Assembly: GCA_963715335.1 (NCBI GenBank)
Contig: CAVQRZ010000023.1
Coordinates: forward strand, 96,001-160,000
Length of the DNA: 64,000 bases
From: an uncultured delta proteobacterium
GTDB taxonomy: Bacteria > Desulfobacterota > Desulfuromonadia > Desulfuromonadales > BM103
Direction: 5' to 3'
Under the pieces are notes generated by a model. That model ran no database searches and had not been told where the DNA came from. It saw only the letters and a program-made list of their open reading frames with translations. Below, in pieces: positions 18,159 to 46,470 of the stretch. A program made the translations under genes and the position numbers. Positions within the stretch are counted from its first letter, which is position 1. Every line of letters begins with the position of its first letter.

Positions 18159-19781
18159 ATGCCGGAATTCTTTTACCAGAACCCGTATCCCGTCGGTGCA
18201 GACAAGACCAGCTACTACAAGGTCGAAGGTTCGGAGAAGTATGTCTCCGTCGAAAGCTTCAATGGTCGGGATGTCCTCAAGGTCGATCCGGAAGCACTGA
18301 CTGTGTTGTCCAGCATTGCCATGAAGGATGTGTCCTTTCTGCTGCGCAAGGAGCACAACGAGCAAGTCGCCAAGATTCTGATGGACCCCGAAGCCTCCCG
18401 TAACGACAAGGGTGTGGCGATGGCATTCCTGCGCAACGCCATGGTTTCGGCCCAGTTCGAACTGCCGACCTGCCAGGACACCGGCACGGCAACTATCGTT
18501 GCCAAAAAAGGTCAACAGGTCTGGACCGGTGTTAACGATGCGGAATATCTTTCCAAGGGGGTTTTCAAGACTTACACCGAAGAGAACCTGCGCTACAGCC
18601 AGACCGTGGCCCTTGATATGTACGAAGAGAAGAACACCGGCACCAACCTGCCGGCGCAGATCGACCTTTACGCCACAGAGGGTGACGCCTACAAGTTCCT
18701 GTTCGTAGCAAAAGGTGGCGGTTCCGCCAACAAGAGCATGCTCTATCAGGAGACCAAGGCGCTGCTCACCCCGGAGAAGCTCTTTGACTATCTGGTCGCC
18801 AAGATGAAAACTCTCGGCACCGCAGCCTGCCCTCCTTACCATCTCGCCTTCGTCATCGGCGGGACCTCGGCCGACGCAGTCATGAAGACCGTCAAGCTGG
18901 CGACTGCCAAGGAACTCGACAATCTGCCGACGGTCGGCAACGATCACGGCCAGGCCTTCCGTGATATCGAGCTGGAGAAGAAACTGCAGAAAGCTGCCCA
19001 GGACCTCGGCATCGGTGCCCAGTTCGGCGGCAAGTACTTTACCCACGATGTCCGCGTCATCCGCCTGCCCCGCCACGGCGCATCCTGCCCGCTCGGCATG
19101 GCGGTTTCCTGCTCGGCTGACCGCAACATCAAGGCCAAGATCACCAGAGACGGCCTGTTTGTCGAAGAGATGGACCGCGATCCGGGCCGCCTGCTCCCCG
19201 AGCAGTATCGTATGGCCAAGCATGAGCATGGTCACAAGGTCGACCTCAACCAGCCGATGGAAGCCATCCTCGCCGAGTTGACCAAGCTCAAGTGCGGCGA
19301 CGCCCTGTTGCTCAACGGCACCATCGTGGTCGGTCGCGACATCGCCCATGCCAAGTTCAAAGAGATCCTCGACAGCGGCAAACCATTGCCCGACTACCTG
19401 AAAAAACACCCGATTTACTACGCCGGACCGGCCAAGACCCCTGCCGGCAAACCATCAGGCTCCTTCGGCCCGACTACGGCCGGCCGGATGGACTCTTACG
19501 TCGGCCTGTTACAGGAGAACGGCGGCTCAATGGTCATGATCGCCAAGGGCAATCGCTCGCAGCAGGTCACTGATGCCTGCAAGAAATTCGGTGGCTTCTA
19601 CCTCGGCTCCATCGGCGGCCCGGCCGCCTTGCTCGCCGAAGAAAACATCAAGAAGGTCGAGTGCATCGACTTCCCCGAACTCGGCATGGAAGCTGTCTGG
19701 CAGATCGACGTCGTCAATTTCCCGGCATTCATCCTGGTTGATGATAAGGGTAACGACTTCTTCAAGCAGTTGGGTCTGTAA
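18159..19781 (+). CDS. fumA: Class I (Fe-S) fumarate hydratase
   Basis: [39 protein letters not shown]. Confidence 0.95.
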
Positions 19782-19894: not shown

Positions 19895-20445
19895 AGGGCA
19901 ACAGATGGTTAATCTGTTGCCCTCGTTCTCTTATTTGAGATCCAAACACAAAAGTTGAAGAACAAAACCGTCGGGGTTGCCCGACAGCAACTTCATTTTC
20001 TTTGTAGCGACAAAGAAAGGAAGCAAAAGAAAGCTTGGCGCTACGCTGGGCATGTCTGGCTCGGCAGGGCGGCGACCTCAATGCAGAACGTTCTAAACGA
20101 TCAAGAGTCTACGCTTCACCCGCAGGAGCCGAGGCTCTTGAGAGCCTCTCCTGCTGTGGAGACTTGCGTTGATAGAGGTTGTTTTGGCTTTTCCCTGGTA
20201 GATCACACGGCAAGGTCAGGCCCTTTGACACAGGGCCGGATCACCATCACAGCGGGTTCTTGAAGTCACAGACATCCGGCAAAGGAGATGCCCTCCGCAA
20301 GGAGAAGGCACTTTTGCATACTTTTGTTGCCGGACAAAAGTATGGCGTCGGGCGGGACGCGACCCGCCGGTTTTGCTTTTAAGCTTTTCAAGAAAAGCAA
20401 AAAGGGCAACAGATTAACCATCTGCTGCCCTCTCTATCATGAATT
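19895..20445. repeat. Dispersed structured non-coding element, copy 1 (MITE/REP-like or ncRNA)
   Basis: Aligns along its length with 45948-46470. Bounded by inverted palindromes GGGCAACAGAT-GGTTA-ATCTGTTGCCC and GGGCAACAGATTAACCATCTGCTGCCC. Confidence 0.85.
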
Positions 20446-20546: not shown

Positions 20547-22361
20547 CTATCGTCCCTGATAAAACCCGGCCTGGGCATTATAAAGACCGGCATAAGCACC
20601 AGCAAGCCGCAACAGCTCAGCGTGGGTTCCTTTCTCGATAATCATTCCATCATCCATCACATATATCCGATCAGCCAACTGCACTGAAGAAAGACGGTGG
20701 CTGATGATCAGCGCGCTACGTTGACCGATGACATTGCGAAACGAACGGATCATCTCAGCTTCAGCCAGAGGGTCGAGGGAACTGCTCGGTTCATCAAATA
20801 TCATCAGGTCAGCGCTACGGAACCAGGCCCTTGCGAGAGCGAGACGCTGCCACTCACCAATACTGAGCTCCTGACCGGCCTGAAAATGCGTGCCGAGCTG
20901 CGTATCAATGCCATCAGCAAACCGGTTTATGAACTGGTCCGCACCAGCAATTTTTGCCGCAGCAGTCAATTCATCAGCATTTGCTTCCTTCTCTGAATCT
21001 CCCAGCCATATGTTCTCGGAGATTGGCAGATCGAATTGTGCGAAATCCTGGCTCACAACACTCAAATGGCGACGCCATGACCTCGGCAAGAACAATTTCA
21101 GGTCCTTGCCTTCCCAGCTAACCTGTCCTTCATCAGGGTCGTAAAGCCGGCAAATTAATTTTGCCAGGGTTGTCTTTCCTGCTCCATTCACCCCAACCAA
21201 AGCGACTATCTCACCTGGACGTACTTCGAGATTCACATTCTTTAGAGTATGCTCCTTACGACTTGGATAAGTGAATGAGAGATCACGACAGACAAGCCCC
21301 AAGGCTGCCGGCTCCGGCACGAAACTTTGTCCGTTCTCCAGCTCAACCTTTACCGGTAGGTCAATCAAATCATAAAAATGTCTCAAGAACAGGTTGTCCT
21401 CATAGAGCCAACCCAGCCCCTGAAGAACATTCTGCAGAGCTGTCAAGGCTCTCTGATAACCTTGAAAATACATAACGATAACACCAAGAGTCATCGCCCC
21501 CTGGATCGCCACAAAAACCATCGCGGCCAGAGTTCCATATAGTGCGATTGTTGCACCGCCCTGCGCCAGGATGTCGCGCCTGACACGCCTTTTACTGATG
21601 TCGAGGCGCCCCTGACGCAACTTGTCACGCAAATCCCGGTAACGCCCACGGAATAAATCACCGATACCCAGCAGACGGATTTCACGAGCAAAATCAATAC
21701 TGGTCATCATCCAGTGGTAGAACCAGGCTTGCCGTTCGAGTTCAACCCGGTCTCGCTCAAAGGTATAGAGTTGGCGGGCATAGATAAGACGCACCAGCCC
21801 TGCAGGGACAGCGGCCAGAAGGAGAGCCAACCCAACGGCCCAATGAAAGGAGAACAACAGCCCGACGATACCAAAAAGTATCAGGAGGTTCTGCAGAGTC
21901 TGCTTCAACCCATTGACGATGTTGGCCGGACGTGACAAGGCGTCTTGTTGAGCAAGATGGAGGGTATTGTGATATGCAGGGTCTTCATAATAACCGAGAT
22001 CGACTGCAATTGACTTTTCGTGGATAAGGTCTGAGACAAAGTCAGAGACAGCCAGAGATTGTGCTTCCGTGACATATGCAGCGATACTGTTAATTGACGC
22101 AGTCGCCAACGCGACCAGGCCAGCAAGCCCGACCCAGATTAAAACTTGCGTTACCGCACCGTCACCTCTTTCAAGCAATGCGGCACCGAGAGAATCAACT
22201 ATCTGCTTCAGCAGCAACAACGCGAACACCGGCAAAGCCGTCTGTACTATCATCAACAACAGGCTTGCAAGAGTCCAGCGAGGGGTTGCTGCCCAAACCA
22301 GTCGCCAGGCACGGTGCAGATTGAAGATTCCTTTGATTCGCATTTTTATCGAACTATTCAT
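20547..22361 (-). CDS. ABC exporter, fused permease/ATPase (peptide-exporter type, no C39 domain)
   Basis: N-terminal TM helices, GVNGAGKTT, LSIGEWQRLALAR, IFDEPSS, ISHR. Start trimmed to MNSSIK. Confidence 0.9.
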   Translation of the reverse strand: MNSSIKMRIKGIFNLHRAWRLVWAATPRWTLASLLLMIVQTALPVFALLLLKQIVDSLGAALLERGDGAVTQVLIWVGLAGLVALATASINSIAAYVTEAQSLAVSDFVSDLIHEKSIAVDLGYYEDPAYHNTLHLAQQDALSRPANIVNGLKQTLQNLLILFGIVGLLFSFHWAVGLALLLAAVPAGLVRLIYARQLYTFERDRVELERQAWFYHWMMTSIDFAREIRLLGIGDLFRGRYRDLRDKLRQGRLDISKRRVRRDILAQGGATIALYGTLAAMVFVAIQGAMTLGVIVMYFQGYQRALTALQNVLQGLGWLYEDNLFLRHFYDLIDLPVKVELENGQSFVPEPAALGLVCRDLSFTYPSRKEHTLKNVNLEVRPGEIVALVGVNGAGKTTLAKLICRLYDPDEGQVSWEGKDLKLFLPRSWRRHLSVVSQDFAQFDLPISENIWLGDSEKEANADELTAAAKIAGADQFINRFADGIDTQLGTHFQAGQELSIGEWQRLALARAWFRSADLMIFDEPSSSLDPLAEAEMIRSFRNVIGQRSALIISHRLSSVQLADRIYVMDDGMIIEKGTHAELLRLAGAYAGLYNAQAGFYQGR

Positions 22362-22445
22362 AGATCCTATCCACATGGAGTCATTACATTTTTCACCAGA
22401 AACACATAAAAAAAATATGCATACTATAGCATTTAAATCATATAT

Positions 22446-22475
22446 TTGTCGTAACAACCATATTCGACATATAAT
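22446..22475 (+). promoter_or_regulatory. Putative sigma70 promoter of the scmC-peptidase unit with overlapping inverted repeat
   Basis: TTGTCG-N18-TATAAT in an AT-rich divergent gap; TGTCG...CGACA dyad. Confidence 0.45.
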
Positions 22476-22484
22476 AGCTGCCTT

Positions 22485-23372
22485 ATGTCTGATCGTGACA
22501 AAATATACGGGCAAGAACTTGCTATTGGCCCCCTCATCTACCACCTCTATGCGATTGATGAATGGGGCGCAAGTATTCTTCATGGAATCAGCACACATCT
22601 TGCCTGTAATGAAATTTCGAGAACGGCTGATCGAATAATATTATTGTTTCATAATGAGCCGGCAGCCTTTACTTCGAAAAAAGTTCCCGCCGCTTTTTCA
22701 ACCTGTGAAGTTGAAGAAGATTCGTGGTATTTCCGCAAAAACCTGATTGACACGACCTGGCAATCGGATCAATCAACCTGCACCTTCTGGTCAGCAGGGG
22801 TTGACACGTTAATCGGGCCCGTTCGTTTTCATCTTCCATGGAGCCTTGTTGTTGATGATCTTGTTGCACGGGGGGGAGGACTGATCCACGCCGGGCTGGC
22901 CGACCACGGAGGCTCCGGATATCTGTTTGCTGCCCCGCCAAGCGGCGGTAAGAGCACAACATTGGCAACAGCCCCAGCCGAGTGGATGATTATGAGTGAT
23001 GACGCTGCTCTCGTCTGGCCAGACGAAAATGGCTGGCTGGCCAGTCCCCTGCCATCCTGGGGAGACCAACTCAAGCCTGACGAGCCCTGGCCCTGGCCAC
23101 AGATGGCGCTTGACTCGACTTGCGCTCTGAGCAACATTTTGCAGCTTGATAAAGGCGCCCATGTCGAACTCGCCAGGCTGAAAGAGTCAGCGGCCCTCCC
23201 CTTTATCTACCAGGCTTTAAGTGAGTATCCCGTCATTATTCTGGCAAACATCAGTTATAGAGAAGAATACTTCCGTAGCGCAGCGCAAATGGCCCGCGTT
23301 CTCTCAACATGGCAGCTTACCCTGCCGAAGCATGGCGACATCTGGCACCTGCTCCAGCAGAGAACCAAATGA
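22485..23372 (+). CDS. scmC: HPr-kinase-like P-loop protein (SynChlorMet ScmC-like)
   Basis: GLIHAG, YLFAAPPSGGKST, MSDDA; context of rSAM, PqqD and peptidase genes. Confidence 0.7.
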   Translation: MSDRDKIYGQELAIGPLIYHLYAIDEWGASILHGISTHLACNEISRTADRIILLFHNEPAAFTSKKVPAAFSTCEVEEDSWYFRKNLIDTTWQSDQSTCTFWSAGVDTLIGPVRFHLPWSLVVDDLVARGGGLIHAGLADHGGSGYLFAAPPSGGKSTTLATAPAEWMIMSDDAALVWPDENGWLASPLPSWGDQLKPDEPWPWPQMALDSTCALSNILQLDKGAHVELARLKESAALPFIYQALSEYPVIILANISYREEYFRSAAQMARVLSTWQLTLPKHGDIWHLLQQRTK

Positions 23373-24010
23373 ACACACTAACCAACACCTTCATATACAA
23401 AGGCAGAAGCATGTGGCCATGTTTTCAGGAAGGCGACCTCCTGGTGCTGGCTGACATCGAATTCAACCAGATTCGTGCAGGCGATTGCATAGCGTACCAG
23501 AGGACCAGCGGCAGAAAAGCGGTGCACCGTGTAGTTGCGCTTCAAAGCTCACTTATCACACGCGGCGATTCTTTACCTTGCGTTGACACTGAATCGGTCA
23601 AATCGGAGCAGGTTATAGGGCGGGTTGTGAGTTTTTATCGCTTCGGCAGGCGGCATCAAGTTGTCGGAGGGTTCATAGGCAGGATTGTGGGTCTGTTCTA
23701 CCGATATGCAGGCCGTATCGATCCGCAAAGACAGGCGCGAGGCGGCTGGCTAGCGCGCAAAATCCGCTTTTTCAGCATGGCGATACTGAAAACAATTCAA
23801 TGTGATGGGAAAGCTGAGAGGCTTAAACTTGATGGGGCAGATGAATTGAAGGTGTGGACTATAGCCGGGAGGGTTATCGGACAACAGGATCAGGACTCAA
23901 GGCAATGGAAGATTGCCTGGCCATGGATGTTTTTGTTGAAATCAGGGAGACTTTTAAGATGGGGCAGAGGTCTTATTTTTCGCCGTTACCTACAGAACAG
24001 TAAACACTAG
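23369..24010 (+). CDS. S24/S26-family (signal-peptidase-like) peptidase
   Basis: GRSMWPCFQEGD (catalytic Ser), GDCIAY, VHRVV, TRGD. ATGA overlap with the upstream gene. Confidence 0.8.
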   Translation: MNTLTNTFIYKGRSMWPCFQEGDLLVLADIEFNQIRAGDCIAYQRTSGRKAVHRVVALQSSLITRGDSLPCVDTESVKSEQVIGRVVSFYRFGRRHQVVGGFIGRIVGLFYRYAGRIDPQRQARGGWLARKIRFFSMAILKTIQCDGKAERLKLDGADELKVWTIAGRVIGQQDQDSRQWKIAWPWMFLLKSGRLLRWGRGLIFRRYLQNSKH

Positions 24011-24179
24011 CTCCATTGCCACGCGTACAGTTACCCTGGTTTGACGCCCCTGACCCAGATGCGCATTGGGTTGGACCGCCAGGCGTGGGCGTAGTACCAG
24101 TCGCGCATTCACCGAAAATCGGCTGACATGAGTCAACAGACCTGACCATCGGCTCTTTCCATAAACGCTTATTACTCAT
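23973..24179 (-). CDS. Putative RiPP precursor peptide (68 aa, WxxP leader, four CxxG repeats)
   Basis: GAGGGGG RBS; co-oriented just downstream of two rSAM genes; Gly/Ser/Thr/Cys-rich core. Confidence 0.8.
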   Translation of the reverse strand: MSNKRLWKEPMVRSVDSCQPIFGECATGTTPTPGGPTQCASGSGASNQGNCTRGNGASVYCSVGNGEK

Positions 24180-24282
24180 ACAACAGCCCCCTCAAAAATG
24201 ATTTCCGCGATTATAGCCCTATCCGGGTATCTTGCCAACCCCCAGATTATGTAGCCAATCTGCAAGATGAGCCTCGACACCT

Positions 24283-25356
24283 TTAGCCTCTGCGCCTCTT
24301 TAACGGGAACAACCCTTGTTCAGCGGCTTGTTGACAGAACCAGTATGGTGCCAGCAGGTCACCGGAGAGCTGATAATTGGAGGCGACACAACTACCAAGG
24401 CAGTTTTCCTGCATCAAACAATCACGGCAAATCCCCTGAAGACTCTTCGGCAAGCCTTCCCTCAGGCCCATAAGCACCTGGTGGCTCTGCCAAATCTCCT
24501 TGAGCTTTACTGACATGACAGCACCCATCGACAGTTCCGGAACATGTTGACCAACACCACACAACGAGTAGGCCCCTGAGGGCAGGATGCCGAGCACGTG
24601 CATGATGTTACAGACCCCGTCATCCTCCCCGGAGATTATGCGTGAGAGAGGTCGGAAAGCATGTGGAACGCCCATTTGAATGGGGAGGCTGAACTGCTGT
24701 GACCACTTCTCAGAAACTTTTGCAGATATATCCAGGATCTCCTTGATACTCAAGGCATCTCCTTCATTAGAGAGGGTCTCAGCTCTCAGGACCGGTTGCA
24801 GCACGTTCAGTTTGACTGCGCCAGCGCCCAACCCCTCAGCCAGGGCAAAAAAATCAGGCAGTTGTCTTTTGTTCGATTGTTGCAAGGTCAAAATCAATTC
24901 AGGACGGAAACCCGCGCCAACCAATGCGCGAATCCCCATAATGGTTTTTTTAAAACCACTTTTGACGCAGCGAATCGCATCGTGGGTCCTGTCATTTGCT
25001 CCATCCAGGCTCACGGACACCCTGCTCACTCCGCTGTCCCGCATCAAGCTTGCCAGTTCATCATTAACCAACATACCGTTAGTCTCGACAATCGCCTCTA
25101 GATTGTATTCTCTCTGCAAATCAAGAAGCTCACGGAAACACGGATGCAGTGTCGGTTCCCCGCCAGTCCACTTGATGGCAGAAAGACCCAACGGGAGAGC
25201 CTGTTCGATGGCATGCCTCAATATTCGCGGCTCAAGGACAACTTGCTCATCCTGCTTTTGACGTTCCGGCACGAACCAGCAATGCCGACAAGCACAGTTA
25301 CAACCACTGGTCAGGTAAGCATAGAAGGTATTCAATGTCGGCACAGTCACGGCCAT
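24283..25356 (-). CDS. scmF: Radical SAM/SPASM peptide maturase (ScmF-like)
   Basis: YLTSGCNCACRHC, WTGGEP, ETNG, SVSLDG, SPASM cysteines CRDCLMQENCLGSC. Confidence 0.8.
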   Translation of the reverse strand: MAVTVPTLNTFYAYLTSGCNCACRHCWFVPERQKQDEQVVLEPRILRHAIEQALPLGLSAIKWTGGEPTLHPCFRELLDLQREYNLEAIVETNGMLVNDELASLMRDSGVSRVSVSLDGANDRTHDAIRCVKSGFKKTIMGIRALVGAGFRPELILTLQQSNKRQLPDFFALAEGLGAGAVKLNVLQPVLRAETLSNEGDALSIKEILDISAKVSEKWSQQFSLPIQMGVPHAFRPLSRIISGEDDGVCNIMHVLGILPSGAYSLCGVGQHVPELSMGAVMSVKLKEIWQSHQVLMGLREGLPKSLQGICRDCLMQENCLGSCVASNYQLSGDLLAPYWFCQQAAEQGLFPLKRRRG

Positions 25357-26456
25357 AACGATAGCCCCTCTGCTGCAAGTTTCTCCTGAAATCGTTTGAG
25401 ACAGGTCGACGGGCATGGCTGGTCAACTTTCCCGGTCGCTGTAAACGCCGTACCGGGACAGTTCCCGGTACAACTTGACTGCCATTCACACAGACGACAT
25501 TCGTCAAACTCTTCAAGCGCAATTTCCCACCGTTCACGCAACCGGCATAATGACTCGGCATTCTGCCAGACCTCAACCAGTGGAGTCTCTCCGACCTTGC
25601 CGAGGACCATGTGCGGCAGCATGACACAGGGGATATAAGCACCATCTGAACGAACCGCAAGGCTGTCGTAAATACAGCCACAACCGACCAGACGTCCCCG
25701 ACCCGGCACAGGAGTCCCAGACCGTCGTGCCTCCTCCATTTCACTGAACATACGCCAGTCCGCCAGAGGCCCTGCATTTGCGCGAATCCGCCCCGGATAT
25801 TGTTTGTCAAGGTTCGCCATGATTTTTATCGCTTTTAAATGCTCTCTGGTGTTAAGCAAAACACCCGTGCCGTATTTTGTCGAAGTCCCGAGCGAGGAAG
25901 CGGCATTGGTACTGAAAGAAGGGAGCCTCAGTTCTGTCAGCAATAGTCGTGCGATTTTCGGAAGGTCATCTATATTGCCGGGATGGATGGTCACTCTGAC
26001 TGTTACTGGCAGTTTGGTACTCTGCAAAGCTCTGATTCCTGATAACGCCGGCTCAAATGTTCCCTTACCGCGAAGACTTTCATGAATTTCTGCTGTCGAG
26101 CCATCCAGTGACACCTGGACCATGTCACACCGGCCTGTCTGCTGCAGGTGAACAGCAATTTGCGAGGTCAGGAAACTGCCGTTGGTCAACACGGAAAAAC
26201 GCATGCGATTGGCAACAATCCCGTCAACCAAGTCTAAAAAATCATCCCTGATCAACGGTTCACCACCCTGCAGGGTTACATTCATCACCTGGCAGTTTGC
26301 CAGTTCCTCGAAAAAGGTTAACCAGAATTCAGTAGGCAGGTCGGCGTAGATTACATCAGGGTTGTTAAGATAGTAACAATAGCTGCAGTTCGCGTTGCAG
26401 CGGCTGGTAATTTCAAGATCCAGAGAGCGTGGAGTACGCATCACTTGCGGAGACAT
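25347..26456 (-). CDS. scmE: Radical SAM/SPASM peptide maturase (ScmE-like)
   Basis: EITSRCNANCSYC, LQGGEP, QVSLDG, GCGC, CRLCEWQSSCTGNC, PCPSTC. TAATG coupling with the upstream PqqD gene. Confidence 0.8.
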   Translation of the reverse strand: MSPQVMRTPRSLDLEITSRCNANCSYCYYLNNPDVIYADLPTEFWLTFFEELANCQVMNVTLQGGEPLIRDDFLDLVDGIVANRMRFSVLTNGSFLTSQIAVHLQQTGRCDMVQVSLDGSTAEIHESLRGKGTFEPALSGIRALQSTKLPVTVRVTIHPGNIDDLPKIARLLLTELRLPSFSTNAASSLGTSTKYGTGVLLNTREHLKAIKIMANLDKQYPGRIRANAGPLADWRMFSEMEEARRSGTPVPGRGRLVGCGCIYDSLAVRSDGAYIPCVMLPHMVLGKVGETPLVEVWQNAESLCRLRERWEIALEEFDECRLCEWQSSCTGNCPGTAFTATGKVDQPCPSTCLKRFQEKLAAEGLSLWP

Positions 26457-26761
26457 TAATCCTGCTCCCAAACCCCTACAGCACCGAGGATTGCTAATGT
26501 CTCCATTAAACCAATGACCTGCTGGGCCGTCGAGTCATCAATGCCCTCGTATCTGTTCCTTAGGCAATCAACAACTTCACCCAGGCTACGTTTTCCATCC
26601 AGCAACTTCCATACGTCAACCGCCGTGCTGTTGAGCATCTGCACCTTTCCATTATCAGGGTCAAACAACAGCGCGCAATCATCGTCTTCGATGCGCAGAA
26701 CGAGACCTGGATTGACCGCCAGGCGACTGTCCATATCGATTTTCAATTCGTTGTTATCCAA
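26456..26761 (-). CDS. scmD: PqqD/RRE-family peptide chaperone (ScmD-like)
   Basis: VLRIEDDDCALLFDPDNGKVQMLNSTAVDVWKLLDGKRSLGEV is a typical PqqD pattern. Confidence 0.85.
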   Translation of the reverse strand: MDNNELKIDMDSRLAVNPGLVLRIEDDDCALLFDPDNGKVQMLNSTAVDVWKLLDGKRSLGEVVDCLRNRYEGIDDSTAQQVIGLMETLAILGAVGVWEQD

Positions 26762-26782
26762 AGGAATCCTTAATAGAAGAGA

Positions 26783-27070
26783 CTATTCTATTGGCAGCTT
26801 TACAACGAGACCGTGACGTAGAGCGAAACCAAGGATGGATCGAGTCTGTCGTTCAGCATCAGCCCGGTTGAGGTCAAAGTTCTGCAACAGGAAATTCAAA
26901 CAATCACTACGGTTAAAAAATCGTCCTTCAGGCAGCAACGACGCCTGCTCGAAGAGCGCCGCGGCAGCGTGATTGACAGTAACCATCACATCCCGATTAG
27001 CAATCAGCATAACTGCATCCTCGTCAAAAAATTCAATGAAAACATGAGGAGAGAGTTGGTAGCAATCCAC
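26783..27070 (-). CDS. Second, divergent PqqD/RRE-like protein
   Basis: 95 aa, EFFDEDAVML...VNHAAAALF...FDLNRADAERQTRSIL; size and pattern fit an RRE fold. Confidence 0.55.
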   Translation of the reverse strand: MDCYQLSPHVFIEFFDEDAVMLIANRDVMVTVNHAAAALFEQASLLPEGRFFNRSDCLNFLLQNFDLNRADAERQTRSILGFALRHGLVVKLPIE

Positions 27071-27100
27071 CAGGCGTACACCTTTCGAATATGATCCTTC

Positions 27101-27130
27101 ATGTTAGTTGTTTTACAAGTGGACTGTCAA
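27101..27130 (-). promoter_or_regulatory. Putative sigma70 promoter of the PqqD-rSAM-precursor operon
   Basis: Minus strand TTGACA-N18-TAACAT. Confidence 0.55.
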
Positions 27131-27169
27131 ATAAACGGAGGGATGAAATCATTCACCGCCAGAGAATGA

Positions 27170-27872
27170 TCAAAACCCTGACAGCGCCATCAGCAGCGGC
27201 AGGAGAAAGGTTGTCATCAGACCATTCAACCCGATCGCCAAACCAGCAGCGGCACCGGCAAGACGGTTGACCTCGAGCATTCTCGCCGTACCGATGCCGT
27301 GGGCGGACGTGCCGATCGCAAGCCCCATCGACACCGGGGAAGTCACACCGATGCGGCGGCAGAACTCCGGGCCGCAGACCGCCCCGAGACAACCGGTCAG
27401 AACGACCAGGGCGGCGGTCAGAGGCGCAATGCCACCGAGCTTGTCAACGATACTGATGGCAATCGGTGTGGTCACCGACTTCGGTGCCAGGGAGAGGATC
27501 ACCTCCCGGCTGCCACCGAGGAGCCAGGCCAGTCCGCAGGCTGAAATAATCGAGGCGAGAGAGCCGGCAAAGATGCCGGCCAGGATCAGTCGCTTGCGTT
27601 TCCAGATCTCTTCACGGCGCTGGTACAGAGGGACTGCCAGGGCAACCACGGATGGACCGAGCAGGAACAGGATCATGTCGCCGCCACGGGCATAATCACG
27701 GTATTCGATCCCGGTGCCTTTAAGCAGCAGAATGATTGCAACGATCGCCAACAGGACCGGGTTGGCCCATACGCTGTTGACGCGCCGGTAGAGGGTTTGC
27801 GCCAAGCAGGTAGACGACCAGCGTCAGGCCGATGCCGAACAGCGGAGTCTTGACCAGTTCAGCCCACATCAT
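27170..27872 (-). pseudogene. lrgB: LrgB/CidB-family protein with an apparent +1 frameshift near 27805
   Basis: LGPSVVALAVPLY, PKSVTTPIA, HGIGTARM. The natural N-terminus (MMWAELVKTPLFGIGLTLVVYLL) is in another frame. May be a sequencing error. Confidence 0.7.
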
Positions 27873-28212
27873 CGCTCCCCCGGTTTTCGAGTTTCTGGGC
27901 CAGCAGACCGGTGACAGCCATGACTACAAAAGTACTGATTATTGTTGCGACGGTAATCGGCAACCATTCTGCAGCGATCAGGTCACTGTAAACCATGACG
28001 CCGACGCCGGCCGGGACAAAGAACAGCGTCATGTTGGACAGCAGGATTTCCGCTGCCTCCTCGATCCATTTCACATCAACCCAGCCGACAATTAAACCAA
28101 GCAACAGCAGCCCCATCCCCATGACGTTACCTGGAATCGGTAAGCCCAGGGACCGGCTGATGATTTCACCACACAGCTGGAACAGCAGCAGGAATGTCAG
28201 ACCACGAACCAT
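27859..28212 (-). CDS. lrgA: CidA/LrgA-family holin-like protein
   Basis: LPIPGNVMGM, LFFVPAGVGV; adjacent to lrgB. Confidence 0.92.
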   Translation of the reverse strand: MVRGLTFLLLFQLCGEIISRSLGLPIPGNVMGMGLLLLGLIVGWVDVKWIEEAAEILLSNMTLFFVPAGVGVMVYSDLIAAEWLPITVATIISTFVVMAVTGLLAQKLENRGSDDVG

Positions 28213-28270: not shown

Positions 28271-29063
28271 TCAGCCTTCGTCCTGGAGGCCTTCGATAAG
28301 CGCCTTGACTTCGGCGCAGATATCCTTCGATGCCTGGCTCTTCTCATGTTTGAGAAATTCCCTGAAACAGTGCAGAGACTCCTGAATCTGCTCCTGGTCC
28401 AGGTAGATATTTCCCAGCGTCAGGTAAGCAAAGGAGAAATCCGGATCGAGGGCTATGGCCTTGCGGCAGTATTTTTCTGCCTCGGCCAGATGCATCATTC
28501 TCATAGTGGAACTCGGCCAGGTTGAAATGGCCCTGCGGATCTTCAGGTTCGAGCTCGATGGCCTTCTCAAAACAATCGCGAGCTTCATCCGCACGTCCGG
28601 TCGCGAAACAGACATCGCCAAGTGAATAGAGGGCAAAAGCCGACTCCGGGTCCTGTTCGAGAGCCTGTCGATAGCACTCCTCGGCCTTGTCCATGCGCTC
28701 CTGATGAAAGTGGATCAGGCCGAGACTGACTCGGGCGTCGATTTGACCCGGGTCACGTAACAGAACATCCTCGTAGACCCGGCATGCTTCTTCAGGACGT
28801 CCCAGTTCAAAATAAACATCGCCCAGGTCAAATTGCAGATCATATTCTCCAGGAAGTTCTCCAACGACTTTCTCAAGCACTCTGGCCGCCTCTTCAAGAT
28901 GACCCGCCTCGACCAGGGCTTCCCCCAGGAAGGCACGGGTTTCGACGTCGTCCCCCTGCTCCTGCAAAAGCCTTTTGAGGATCCGTACGGCCTCTTCCGC
29001 CGCACCTTTTTCAAGCGCCTGCTCCGCCCTGCTTATGGAAATTTGTCCTTCATTCATCTGCAT
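28271..29063 (-). pseudogene. TPR-repeat protein with an apparent frameshift near 28492
   Basis: TPR motifs run through ORF 28344-29105 to AEFHYEND and resume as LAEAEKYCRKAIALDPDFSFAYLTLG in ORF 28271-28636. Confidence 0.7.
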
Positions 29064-30387
29064 TCTCCTCGTATTCTGTGTTAAGAACCGGCGCAAACTC
29101 TTCATTCAAGGTGTCAAGCATGTCCCACACTCCCCATGGCTCAGCCGGAATGACTTCAACCTCGACCTGCAGGTGGTCGGCAAGGTCGCGAATGGACACA
29201 TCGTCCAGGAACACATCTTCAGCTTCACGCAGCATGACATCCGGAACCAGCAGTATCTGGCCGAGTTCTGCATTGGCCAACTGCTCAAGCAGATCCTGGC
29301 CGGTCAGAAGTCCGGCCACGGTAACATCCCCGGCAAAGAAGCGATTCTCAACCGTATGCACCCGCAGGTCAGTACCGCATTTTTCGTTCAGTAAATCAGC
29401 AAACCAGCGGAGTTCCCCGGCAGCGGACACCCCGGTCACCAGGCTGACCGGCGGCAGCTTGAGCGGTTGCGCCTCTTTGATCACTGCCTCGGCCTGCATA
29501 CGAAACATCGGGACCAGGCCGACGCCATTCTCAATCTGGGACAGTTCTTCGTAGGACTCCAGGGGAGGAAAATCCTTTGCCGCCCTGAGATAGAGTTCGT
29601 CAGCGGCGAACATAAATCGTGTGCCGAGCGTTTCCAGCAACTCGGACTGTTTCTCCCCTATCCAATCTGCCAGTTCCAGAGCTTCGCCCCTGGTGTGGAT
29701 CCTCAATTCTGGAAGACGCTGCCGGTGCCCGGTCAATCCGACCGGGACAATCGCCAGAGATTTGACTCCGGGAGCAAGGCAGGACAGTTCTTTCAAGGTC
29801 TGCTCCAGGTGAACACCATCGTTAATTCCGGGACAGACAACGACCTGGGTGTGCAACTCTATGCCTCCATTGACCAGGGTCCTGATTATCGGCATGACAT
29901 CCGGTGCAGGTTTGCCAAGCAGTTTTTGCCGCAGCGTGTTATCGACGGCATGCACTGAGATGTAGAGTGGCGAGAGCTGCTTACGCAAAATCAGCTTCAG
30001 GTCATCCTCAGTCAGGTTGGTCAGGGTGATATAGGCCCCGTAAAGATAGGAAAACCGGTAGTCTTCGTCCTTGATGTACAGGGTACGCCGCATGCCCTGC
30101 GGCAGTTGGTGGACGAAACAGAAGATACAGTTGTTCCCGCACTGTTTCGGTTCCGGATGCGGCAACAAGATGCCGAGCGGCTCCTCGCTGTCGTGCTCGA
30201 TGTCGAGTTCCCAGATTTCACCATCGACGCGTTCAACTTCGATCCACAGCTTTTCGCGAGGTTCTTCGATCAGGTAATCAACCAGGTCATTGACCTGTTC
30301 GCCGTTCAAGCGAACCAGACGGTCACCGGGCTGCAACCCCAATTCATCGGCAATACTGCCGGGCTCTATGGCAAGGATTTCAAGCAT
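29050..30387 (-). CDS. DUF512 family PDZ + Fe-S/radical-SAM-like protein
   Basis: PGSIADELGLQPGD, CGNNCIFCFVHQLP, LYIKDEDYR, QIENGVG, VTVAGLLTG. Confidence 0.88.
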   Translation of the reverse strand: MLEILAIEPGSIADELGLQPGDRLVRLNGEQVNDLVDYLIEEPREKLWIEVERVDGEIWELDIEHDSEEPLGILLPHPEPKQCGNNCIFCFVHQLPQGMRRTLYIKDEDYRFSYLYGAYITLTNLTEDDLKLILRKQLSPLYISVHAVDNTLRQKLLGKPAPDVMPIIRTLVNGGIELHTQVVVCPGINDGVHLEQTLKELSCLAPGVKSLAIVPVGLTGHRQRLPELRIHTRGEALELADWIGEKQSELLETLGTRFMFAADELYLRAAKDFPPLESYEELSQIENGVGLVPMFRMQAEAVIKEAQPLKLPPVSLVTGVSAAGELRWFADLLNEKCGTDLRVHTVENRFFAGDVTVAGLLTGQDLLEQLANAELGQILLVPDVMLREAEDVFLDDVSIRDLADHLQVEVEVIPAEPWGVWDMLDTLNEEFAPVLNTEYEENADE

Positions 30388-45947: not shown

Positions 45948-46470
45948 AATTCGTGATGGAGAGGGCAACAGATGGTTCATCTGTTGCCTTTTTCCATTGG
46001 ACGTTGGAATTCAAAGACAAAAGCAAAACCCGGGGGTTGCGCCCCCCGACTGCGCCTTACTCTTTTGCTGGCCCAAAAGAGTAAGCAGAAAAAGGCCTGC
46101 GCTGCGCTGGGCATGTCTGGCGCGTCAGGGCGGCAACCTCAATTCAGACAGGGCTATCCGACCAAATGTCTACATTTCCCCCGCAGGTGACGAGGCTCTT
46201 GAGAGCCTCTCCTTTCGTGGAGATTTGCGTCGATAGGGGTTGTTTTGGCTTTTCCCTTGTAAATCACACGGAAAGGTCAGGTCCTTTGACACAGGGCCGG
46301 ATCCCCATCACAGCAGGTTTTTGAAGTCACAGAAATCCGGCAGAGGAGATGCCCTCCGCAAGGAGAAAGGCACTTTTGCATACTTTTGTTGCCGGACAAA
46401 AGTATGGCGTCCGGCGGGACGCGACCCGCCGGTTTTGTCTTTCCGAAAAAGCAAAAGGACACAGATGAAA
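45948..46470. repeat. Dispersed structured non-coding element, copy 2
   Basis: Same orientation as 19895-20445 and highly similar. Left end AATTCGTGATGGAGAGGGCAACAGATGGTTCATCTGTTGCC is nearly the reverse complement of copy 1's right end. The right terminal palindrome is degenerate. Confidence 0.85.

Follow-up and report, generated by a model that had tools for sequence, protein, structure and literature searches.

A family-specific SynChlorMet cassette and its candidate Cys-rich precursor peptide at an exchanged chromosomal site in Desulfuromonadales

What is made by a gene cluster that combines two different radical S-adenosylmethionine (SAM) enzymes with a kinase-like protein, a peptidase and an exporter? 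This question is raised by a cassette at positions 20547-27070 of the window, i.e., the whole stretch of 64,000 nucleotides (nt) that was analyzed, which corresponds to positions 96,001-160,000 of contig CAVQRZ010000023.1 from an uncultured delta proteobacterium. A sequence-only reading of this DNA had proposed a self-contained pathway for a peptide that ribosomes make and that is modified after translation (RiPP), encoded by eight genes of defined order and strand. We find all eight open reading frames (ORFs) as proposed and without frame breaks, and the cassette is real and intact. Of the outcomes named in that reading as refuting it, none of those that can be checked by computation came true. 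The gene set, the RiPP recognition elements (RREs), the kinase motifs, the peptidase triad and a conserved small ORF all support such a pathway, and the roles of the individual enzymes are put forward here as predictions. A RiPP pathway that uses a 68-amino-acid (aa) ORF as its precursor is very likely. For the whole chain, a SynChlorMet-type RiPP pathway with thioether chemistry, we estimate a probability of about 0.5.

The assignment to SynChlorMet proteins ScmC, ScmD, ScmE and ScmF made in the sequence-only reading holds, as each of the four is the best NCBIfam match of its protein. ScmE (369 aa; 25347-26456, minus strand) passes the cut-off of TIGR04250 (447.2 bits, cut-off 400). The ScmF-like enzyme (357 aa; 24283-25356, minus strand) matches TIGR04251 over its full length with 382.4 bits, below the cut-off of 400, and the next model reaches 143 bits. 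Below cut-off are also the ScmC-like protein (295 aa; 22485-23372, plus strand; TIGR04249, 67.5 bits, cut-off 125, E = 1.2e-18), which we therefore regard as a homolog and not as an equivalog member, and the ScmD-like protein (101 aa; 26456-26761, minus strand; TIGR04248, 64.5 bits, cut-off 100, E = 7.9e-18). These components are found together in one conserved cluster, and the homologous loci of the bacterial family keep the same gene order. The window precursor has no match to the precursor model TIGR04252 (ScmA) at E ≤ 10, and we thus treat the cassette as a variant of the Scm type that is specific to the family, not as a plain member. Among 15 related peptides, 10 match TIGR04252 weakly (7.6-24.8 bits) and none exceeds the cut-off of 35; the link from the window precursor to the canonical Scm loci runs through a profile of the family precursors instead. 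Since NCBIfam already contains this type of cassette together with a model for its precursor, to call this an undescribed system, as had been done, was an overstatement; the undescribed part is the chemistry.

Within the bacterial family, 12 of 44 genomes carry ScmE matches (E ≤ 1e-80); a sample from the phylum gave 21 of 401 (E ≤ 1e-90), the own genome being counted in both. The family copies form a clade separate from three outside rows (branch support 100/100), and intact family copies score 407-459 bits against TIGR04250, compared to 507-654 bits in 19 of the 20 other matches from the phylum. Close relatives of the cassette carry the labels Desulfuromonadales or Desulfuromonas, and a plasmid collection yielded no ScmE match at E ≤ 1e-40. 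We found no publication on a SynChlorMet or Scm cassette in literature listings, which covered few subscription papers and do not prove that such a publication is absent; the portion of the supplement of PMC10288494 available as text contains no Scm term.

Judging from homolog alignments, a codon-position signature and independent gene calls in databases, the 68-aa ORF (23973-24179, minus strand) is a real gene, and a conserved small ORF of this kind adjoins the homologous enzymes. It combines a leader (residues 1-23; 24111-24179) that carries a W7-x-x-P10 motif with a predicted core (residues 24-68) of four C-x-x-G units at C25, C39, C51 and C61. The calculated monoisotopic masses before any modification are 6922.11 Da for the precursor and 4232.79 Da for residues 24-68. 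In 13 aligned family ORFs K4, W7, P10, G23 and the four C-x-x-G units are invariant. Comparison with 12 relatives gave 326, 292 and 529 differences at first, second and third positions over 794 codon pairs, and 235 of 379 codons for the same residue differ in DNA. A profile of the 13 family precursors picks small ORFs near canonical ScmE genes outside the family (6768 stop-to-stop segments from the fetched loci), and when run on the own genome (50,570 segments) it has a single match. The nearest precursor clusters in the ESM Atlas are unnamed hypothetical proteins (0.92-0.93). The arrangement is that expected of a RiPP, i.e., a short ribosomal precursor with a conserved leader and a variable core that adjoins an RRE.

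We extended the comparison to 27 non-redundant precursors of the clade, of which 15 came from loci and 12 from 16 database matches, omitting three duplicates of loci and one N-terminally extended call. A Gly lies exactly 16 residues past the leader Trp in 27/27, and the residue two positions before it is Ala, Ile, Val or Thr in each, as in a (-3,-1) site of the signal-peptidase type. A Ser or Thr stands five residues past the first Cys in every precursor, and all 110 core Cys are followed by Gly at +3. The C-terminal residues vary. For 12 precursors outside the family, in which the leader motif reads Y-x-x-P, Gly was found at +3 of 59 of the 62 counted Cys, a figure biased upward by the choice of these precursors by motif or profile and by counting from the first C-x-x-G. 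Two further loci are worth recording: one cassette carries two tandem, divergent precursor genes (L020:10367-10800, G040), and a precursor-like ORF has a core expanded by Thr-Gly and Asp/Arg/Trp-rich repeats (L043:1211-1684, G305).

The precursor gene is the last one (3' side) of the minus-strand unit and overlaps the stop region of the convergent peptidase gene by 38 nt. The sequence-only reading had distributed the eight genes over three units. A sigma70-like site lies directly upstream of the precursor gene (TTGGCA-17-TATAAT, 24210-24238, minus strand; 11 of 12 consensus matches), and there may therefore be four transcription units. Such a site, with a 17-nt spacer and 8-11 matches, ends 27-35 nt ahead of the start in 11 of 15 precursor genes of the clade. 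A promoter of its own, as predicted by these consensus matches, suggests separate and stronger expression of the substrate.

Two RREs had been proposed, and both are supported. The ScmD-like protein matches Pfam PqqD with 48.8 bits (cut-off 23.4). The second, divergent protein, D2 (95 aa; 26783-27070, minus strand), has no Pfam or NCBIfam match at E ≤ 0.1; an hhalign comparison of the D2 and ScmD alignments nevertheless gave a probability of 95% (E = 3.7e-8), and weak PqqD matches occur in 7 of 12 D2 family members. Its structure was predicted with a pLDDT of 83, and the best fold matches are RREs of the lasso B1 type, i.e., TbiB1 (5v1v; E = 1.9e-5, TM-score 0.75) and 6jx3. Of 201 genomes of the order, the 13 in which we detected D2 all belong to the window's bacterial family, and the 69 relatives that databases hold make up a closed set. 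Some outside loci encode two or more RREs, one of them fused to ScmE. Judging from the predicted folds, both stand-alone RREs would bind the W-x-x-P leader, and one RRE per radical SAM enzyme appears plausible. At L046:8066-9505 (G424) the N-terminus of ScmE carries a fused ScmD (480 aa in all), and another PqqD precedes ScmF.

Both radical SAM enzymes keep the CxxxCxxC motif. In ScmF, C19/C23/C26 and the SPASM residues C249, C266, C310, C313, C319, C323 and C341 are invariant in 25/25 aligned sequences; the same is true of C20/C24/C27 and seven SPASM Cys of ScmE in 32/32. ScmE aligns to the SPASM Cys of CteB, whose seven-Cys SPASM domain leaves auxiliary cluster I (AuxI) open to a substrate Cys, according to excerpts of PMC6231123. 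The family clade of ScmE carries an additional C261 (12/12, and 17/32 overall) and mostly C348 (10/12), and ScmE and ScmF may thus differ in ligation and reaction. The model of ScmF (pLDDT 92) matches SkfB, PqqE, anSME, SuiB and CteB about equally well.

As in sactipeptide and ranthipeptide pathways, radical SAM/SPASM enzymes are found here with a Cys-rich core. Apart from Cys, the Gly at +3 and one Ser/Thr, no residue of the core is invariant, which makes Cys-to-Gly sactionine rings the simplest reading. Cys-Gly sactionine links in a hairpin pattern are described for StsA (excerpts of PMC10288494), and two radical SAM enzymes act in the thuricin CD pathway (excerpts of PMC3132745). We give thioethers formed from core Cys somewhat better than an even chance; the exact link, from the Cys sulfur to the C-alpha of the Gly at +3, is a tentative proposal. 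Aromatic crosslinking of the cyclophane or triceptide type was rejected: no aromatic column is conserved in the 27 cores, and 10 of them lack F, W, Y and H altogether.

The profile of the ScmC-like protein matches HPr kinase structures (1jb1/2qmh, 5e-6), and H135, G155, K156, D172 and D173 are invariant in 20/20 aligned sequences. Its kinase motif corresponds to that of the lasso peptide kinase BsfK, including the spacing between His and Lys. As described in excerpts of PMC10368454, BsfK needs its RRE and phosphorylates the internal Ser3. The kinase motifs thus bear out the kinase-like protein of the sequence-only reading, and ScmC is probably a peptide Ser/Thr kinase. Judging from conservation, its phosphorylation site is most likely T30, five residues past the first core Cys. 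Phosphorylation of a C-terminal Ser, as in most lasso pathways, was rejected, as none of the 27 precursors ends in Ser.

The peptidase (213 aa; 23369-24010, plus strand), earlier called S24/S26, shows the expected Ser-His-Asp triad, with S14, H53, D67 and D73 invariant in 18/18 aligned sequences. It passes the cut-off of TIGR02228 (52.8 bits, cut-off 51.85), and its best matches in the PDB are SEC11C and SEC11A (1e-12). The catalytic Ser lies at residue 10-24, with no hydrophobic segment ahead of it in any of the 18 sequences. The S26 protein is probably a soluble leader peptidase. Signal peptidases prefer small residues at positions -3 and -1 of the cut site. I21-F22-G23 of the precursor fits this rule, and a cut after G23, leaving a core of 45 residues, is thus predicted. 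The peptidase ORF is ~15 residues longer at its end than those of its relatives, running into the convergent precursor gene (23973-24010). The ATP-binding cassette (ABC) protein, with permease and ATPase on one chain (~600 aa; 20547-22361, minus strand), matches Pfam ABC_tran (2.8e-31) and ABC_membrane (1.6e-4), all NCBIfam matches being below cut-off, and has no C39 peptidase domain match at E ≤ 0.1. An exporter lacking a C39 domain fits a separate leader peptidase. ABC genes of homologous cassettes are 53-74% identical.

Taken together, we propose the following chain. The 68-aa precursor would be made from its own promoter, and its W-x-x-P leader would be held by two stand-alone RREs of the predicted lasso B1 fold and presented to the enzymes. 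ScmC would phosphorylate an internal Ser/Thr, most likely T30, and one or both radical SAM/SPASM enzymes would join core Cys to nearby carbons as thioethers; with the simplest linkage, to the Gly three residues on, up to four small rings would result. The soluble Sec11-type peptidase may then cleave after G23 in the cytoplasm, as the (-3,-1) pattern suggests, and the 45-residue core would leave the cell through the ABC transporter.

The strongest alternative keeps the RiPP pathway and changes its chemistry: the Cys may be free, disulfide-paired or metal-bound in a C-x-x-G repeat fold, while the radical SAM enzymes perform other chemistry, such as C-C crosslinks, epimerisation or dehydrogenation, on a core rich in Gly, Ser, Thr and Ala, or thioethers are the work of just one of the two. 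The Cys of Scm precursors are regularly spaced by 10-15 residues and the repeat number ranges from 2 to 9, which would suit a structural repeat, and ScmE and ScmF are only 25% identical to each other, which suggests two different reactions. We nonetheless consider this alternative doubtful, given that no target besides Cys, Gly and one Ser/Thr is conserved for another reaction, and that the reducing cytoplasm of an anaerobe, with no disulfide catalyst encoded, would disfavor disulfides. Several observations do weigh against the thioether pathway. The invariant Gly at +3 could serve a turn in a disulfide-bonded repeat and not act as radical acceptor, and C261 and C348 of ScmE could fill the open cluster site, so that ScmE may be fully ligated in the family clade. 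SuiB and PqqE complete the fourth AuxI ligand from elsewhere, and the seven-Cys motif is generic (excerpts of PMC6231123 and PMC10452713). The likeness of the ScmF model is no guide to its reaction, thioether and non-thioether enzymes matching equally. The first Gly of the P-loop, required for full activity of BsfK (excerpts of PMC10368454), is replaced by Ala150 in ScmC. To these points we add the lacking TIGR04252 match of the precursor and the absence of any immunity, receptor or regulator gene from the cassette.

The phosphate itself might be transient, either eliminated to give a dehydro residue or used as a handle by the radical enzymes, and the final product would then be phosphate-free. 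Lanthipeptide synthetases provide a precedent for a kinase step followed by elimination, and the strict conservation of the Ser/Thr five residues past the first Cys (27/27) would agree with such a role. It is improbable in our view, as none of the eight cassette proteins is or contains a lyase and the closest characterized kinases leave the phosphate on, as far as excerpts of PMC10368454 describe them. Similarly improbable is a peptide that serves as the source of a small cofactor, akin to pyrroloquinoline quinone (PQQ) or mycofactocin, excised by the peptidase. PqqE is among the nearest solved relatives and the RREs are stand-alone and PqqD-type; against this, the precursors show no conserved Glu/Tyr pair and no C-terminal Val-Tyr, their C-termini vary and their cores are repeats, an exporter is present, no client oxidoreductase adjoins the cassette, and the cassette is often lost and exchanged. 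Finally, the radical SAM proteins could be cofactor-maturation enzymes of the AhbD/NirJ type beside an incidental small ORF. AhbD and NirJ models are second-rank matches, yet AhbD reaches only 112 and 143 bits and the Scm models score 240-330 bits higher. With the small ORF under coding selection and co-inherited with ScmF, and two RREs present, this explanation is largely refuted and very improbable.

Compared to the canonical SynChlorMet system (TIGR04248-TIGR04252), the window cassette likewise combines two radical SAM/SPASM enzymes, a PqqD protein, ScmC and a Cys-repeat precursor, and an S26 peptidase and an ABC exporter adjoin many canonical ScmE loci of the phylum too. It differs in its distinct ScmE clade, in three of four proteins scoring below cut-off, in a W-x-x-P instead of a Y-x-x-P leader (the latter in the 12 outside precursors), in the extra, family-restricted RRE, in a conserved divergent layout, and in a fixed site with allele replacement. 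Sactipeptide and ranthipeptide systems (CteB, SkfB, StsB, thuricin CD TrnC/TrnD), as far as excerpts of the source papers go, share the RRE-dependent radical SAM/SPASM enzymes, the Cys-rich core and the seven-Cys SPASM domain; here we find C-x-x-G units in tandem where those systems have a nested hairpin, an additional kinase and S26 peptidase, sequence identities of only 14-22% to their enzymes in the fold search, and thioethers that are predicted only. Phosphorylated lasso pathways (BsfK/BsfB1; TbiB1) have a leader motif of the Y/W-x-x-P-x-L type and a stand-alone B1-type RRE in common with the cassette, and their HPr-kinase-like peptide kinases share the His, the P-loop Lys-Ser and the Asp-Asp with ScmC, again according to excerpts. 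Unlike these, the eight proteins include no lasso cyclase C or B2 protease, radical SAM enzymes being present instead, and the C-terminal Ser is missing. Signal peptidases of the Sec11/SipW type (S26B) have the same Ser-His-Asp-Asp pattern, and the candidate substrate fits their small-residue rule; the window peptidase, in contrast, lacks an N-terminal membrane anchor, has an unrelated basic C-terminal half, and is encoded in a peptide cassette.

The housekeeping neighbors named in the sequence-only reading were confirmed as a class I fumarate hydratase gene (fum; 18159-19781, plus strand) on one side and an lrgB-lrgA pair, lrgAB/cidAB-like (27170-28212, minus strand), on the other; both are conserved landmarks outside the pathway. 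The cassette or its remnants occur in 17 of 44 family genomes and touch fum, lrgB or both in 13 of these, from six genera (G000, G002, G003, G005, G006, G007, G008, G011, G021, G027, G028, G034 and G041). In G033, G039 and G040 the cassette lies elsewhere, and G001, included in the 17, has not been assigned to either group. fum and lrgB are adjacent without an insert in seven genomes (G016, G020, G024, G025, G026, G030 and G031; four junctions inspected), and the arrangement is uninformative or different in the remaining ones. Within the window's genus (g1) the cassette is intact in G000, carries stops or frameshifts between intact flanking genes in G007 and G008, and is reduced to end fragments in G005 and G006. 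The cassettes of G033 and G041 are broken; fum of G041 is frameshifted as well, so that a sequencing error is possible.

The lrgB tree places the four g1 rows together (100/99). In the trees of ScmF, ScmC and the S26 peptidase, G007 instead groups with one G003 copy (G003a) and G011, and G008 with G021, while G000 tends to G027, G028 and the other G003 copy (G003b). In all six cassette trees (ScmF, ABC, ScmC, S26, precursor, RRE), approximately unbiased (AU) tests rejected the groupings of G000 with G007 and of G000 with G008, with p values from 4.9e-3 to 1.2e-47. A g1 clade of three rows was rejected for ScmF (1e-43) and, weakly, for the ABC gene (0.035). For lrgB the reverse groupings were rejected (p-AU 1.5e-5 and 1.5e-97). 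Thus, three genomes of one genus hold three different cassette lineages at the fum/lrgB site, and vertical descent is rejected. Some points speak against this reading of the trees: the data include metagenome bins and pseudogene rows of uneven base composition, the trees are single-gene trees and not a multi-gene species tree, the weakly resolved fum tree sets G007 apart from the other g1 rows (88/97), and the ScmF protein tree had been seen before the AU tests were run, although the genus labels were set independently of the author.

The RRE pair and the ABC gene have a partly different history (G007 with G008), from which we infer a mosaic cassette whose core, inherited together, consists of ScmF, precursor, peptidase and kinase. 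A recent self-mobile island was rejected, as the cassette genes include no integrase or transposase, no direct repeat flanks them, and the same site is used in six genera. In the lack of an integrase or flanking repeat, homologous recombination through the conserved flanks is the likely route. As best explanation, the cassette is old in the bacterial family, sits mostly between fum and lrgAB, and is exchanged by recombination for versions of other genera; the trees show that precursor, ScmF, kinase and peptidase travel together.

The G003 bin holds two copies. Besides a normal cassette elsewhere, locus L024 (G003:C11, 1-8305) contains a rearranged one, in which the ends of lrgB and fum enclose two sets of RREs and two precursors that differ from each other. 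For the second G003 copy, whose short contig has g1-like ends, bin contamination is possible. The spacer that separates the fum terminator from the ABC gene contains a non-coding element of ~540 bp with palindromic inverted ends of 27-30 nt (19895-20432), which, as judged from its sequence, resembles a miniature inverted-repeat transposable element (MITE). In the own genome, 28 matches span both ends (self included; identity of the others 76-91%), and 56 matches, spread over 22 contigs, have a length of 300 nt or more. One partial copy lies in the window (~45962-46442; 82% identical over 495 nt), and related copies occupy the same site in G006 and G008. No Rfam match of the element exceeds the gathering score; a general Rfam scan gave four weak matches, none of which reached it.

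The ABC and ScmF genes are probably shorter than their mechanical ORFs. A start of the ABC gene at 22598 (683-aa ORF) was rejected, since it would overlap ScmC and since, with the 22361 start, the alignment to homologs begins at the very first residues; the start thus lies most likely at 22361 or 22343. A 377-aa ScmF was likewise rejected, as homologs align from residues 1-5 of the 357-aa form, and the most likely start is 25356, preceded by a GAGGGG sequence resembling a Shine-Dalgarno motif. The low-GC divergent region between the ABC and kinase genes (22362-22484) contains putative sigma70-like sites on both strands, at 22446-22475 (plus) and 22452-22423 (minus), based on consensus matches. 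The unit of RREs and radical SAM enzymes is preceded by a candidate sigma70-like promoter (TTGACA-18-TAACAT, 27101-27130, minus strand); the TTGAC and TAACA(T/G) elements recur 3' of the lrgB stop in the filled-site genomes inspected and are absent from four empty sites. The view that the intergenic DNA is more AT-rich than the flanks holds for 22410-22484 (27% GC) and 26762-26782 (33%), whereas 24180-24282 (50%) and 27071-27169 (41%) resemble the four flanking spacers (41, 41, 45 and 50%). Gene composition is the clearer signal: the GC content of the block is 50.9%, compared to 55.5% for the genome, and the GC content at third codon positions is 0.45-0.57 in all eight cassette genes and 0.61-0.77 in all eight flanking genes checked. 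Beyond lrgA, a TPR-like protein is seemingly split across two frames (28271-29105; ORFs 28344-29105 and 28271-28636), a possible frameshift or assembly error.

While the cassette type is catalogued and widespread, its product and chemistry are undescribed. This locus contributes the family-restricted second RRE, a tight precursor family that permits residue-level predictions, and allele exchange at one site. The copy is compact and intact, its precursor has four units, and 27 natural variants are available; specific predictions follow, namely a cut after G23, a phosphate at T30 and links at C25, C39, C51 and C61. They make the chemistry testable, including the roles of two radical SAM enzymes and two RREs on one peptide, and bear on whether an S26 peptidase can serve as a cytoplasmic leader peptidase. 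A more far-reaching idea, which we regard as unlikely, is a new RiPP class: an exported phosphopeptide with tandem four-residue Cys-Gly thioether rings and a second radical modification, an own RRE for each enzyme, a leader cut by a soluble Sec11-type peptidase, and alleles that are swapped between genera at one chromosomal site and serve anaerobic Desulfuromonadales as bacteriocins or signals of strain identity. The exchange of cassette versions between genera at one site would fit a strain-specific product that is found outside the cell, for example a signal or bacteriocin, and points to an ecological, strain-specific role of the cassette in this family.

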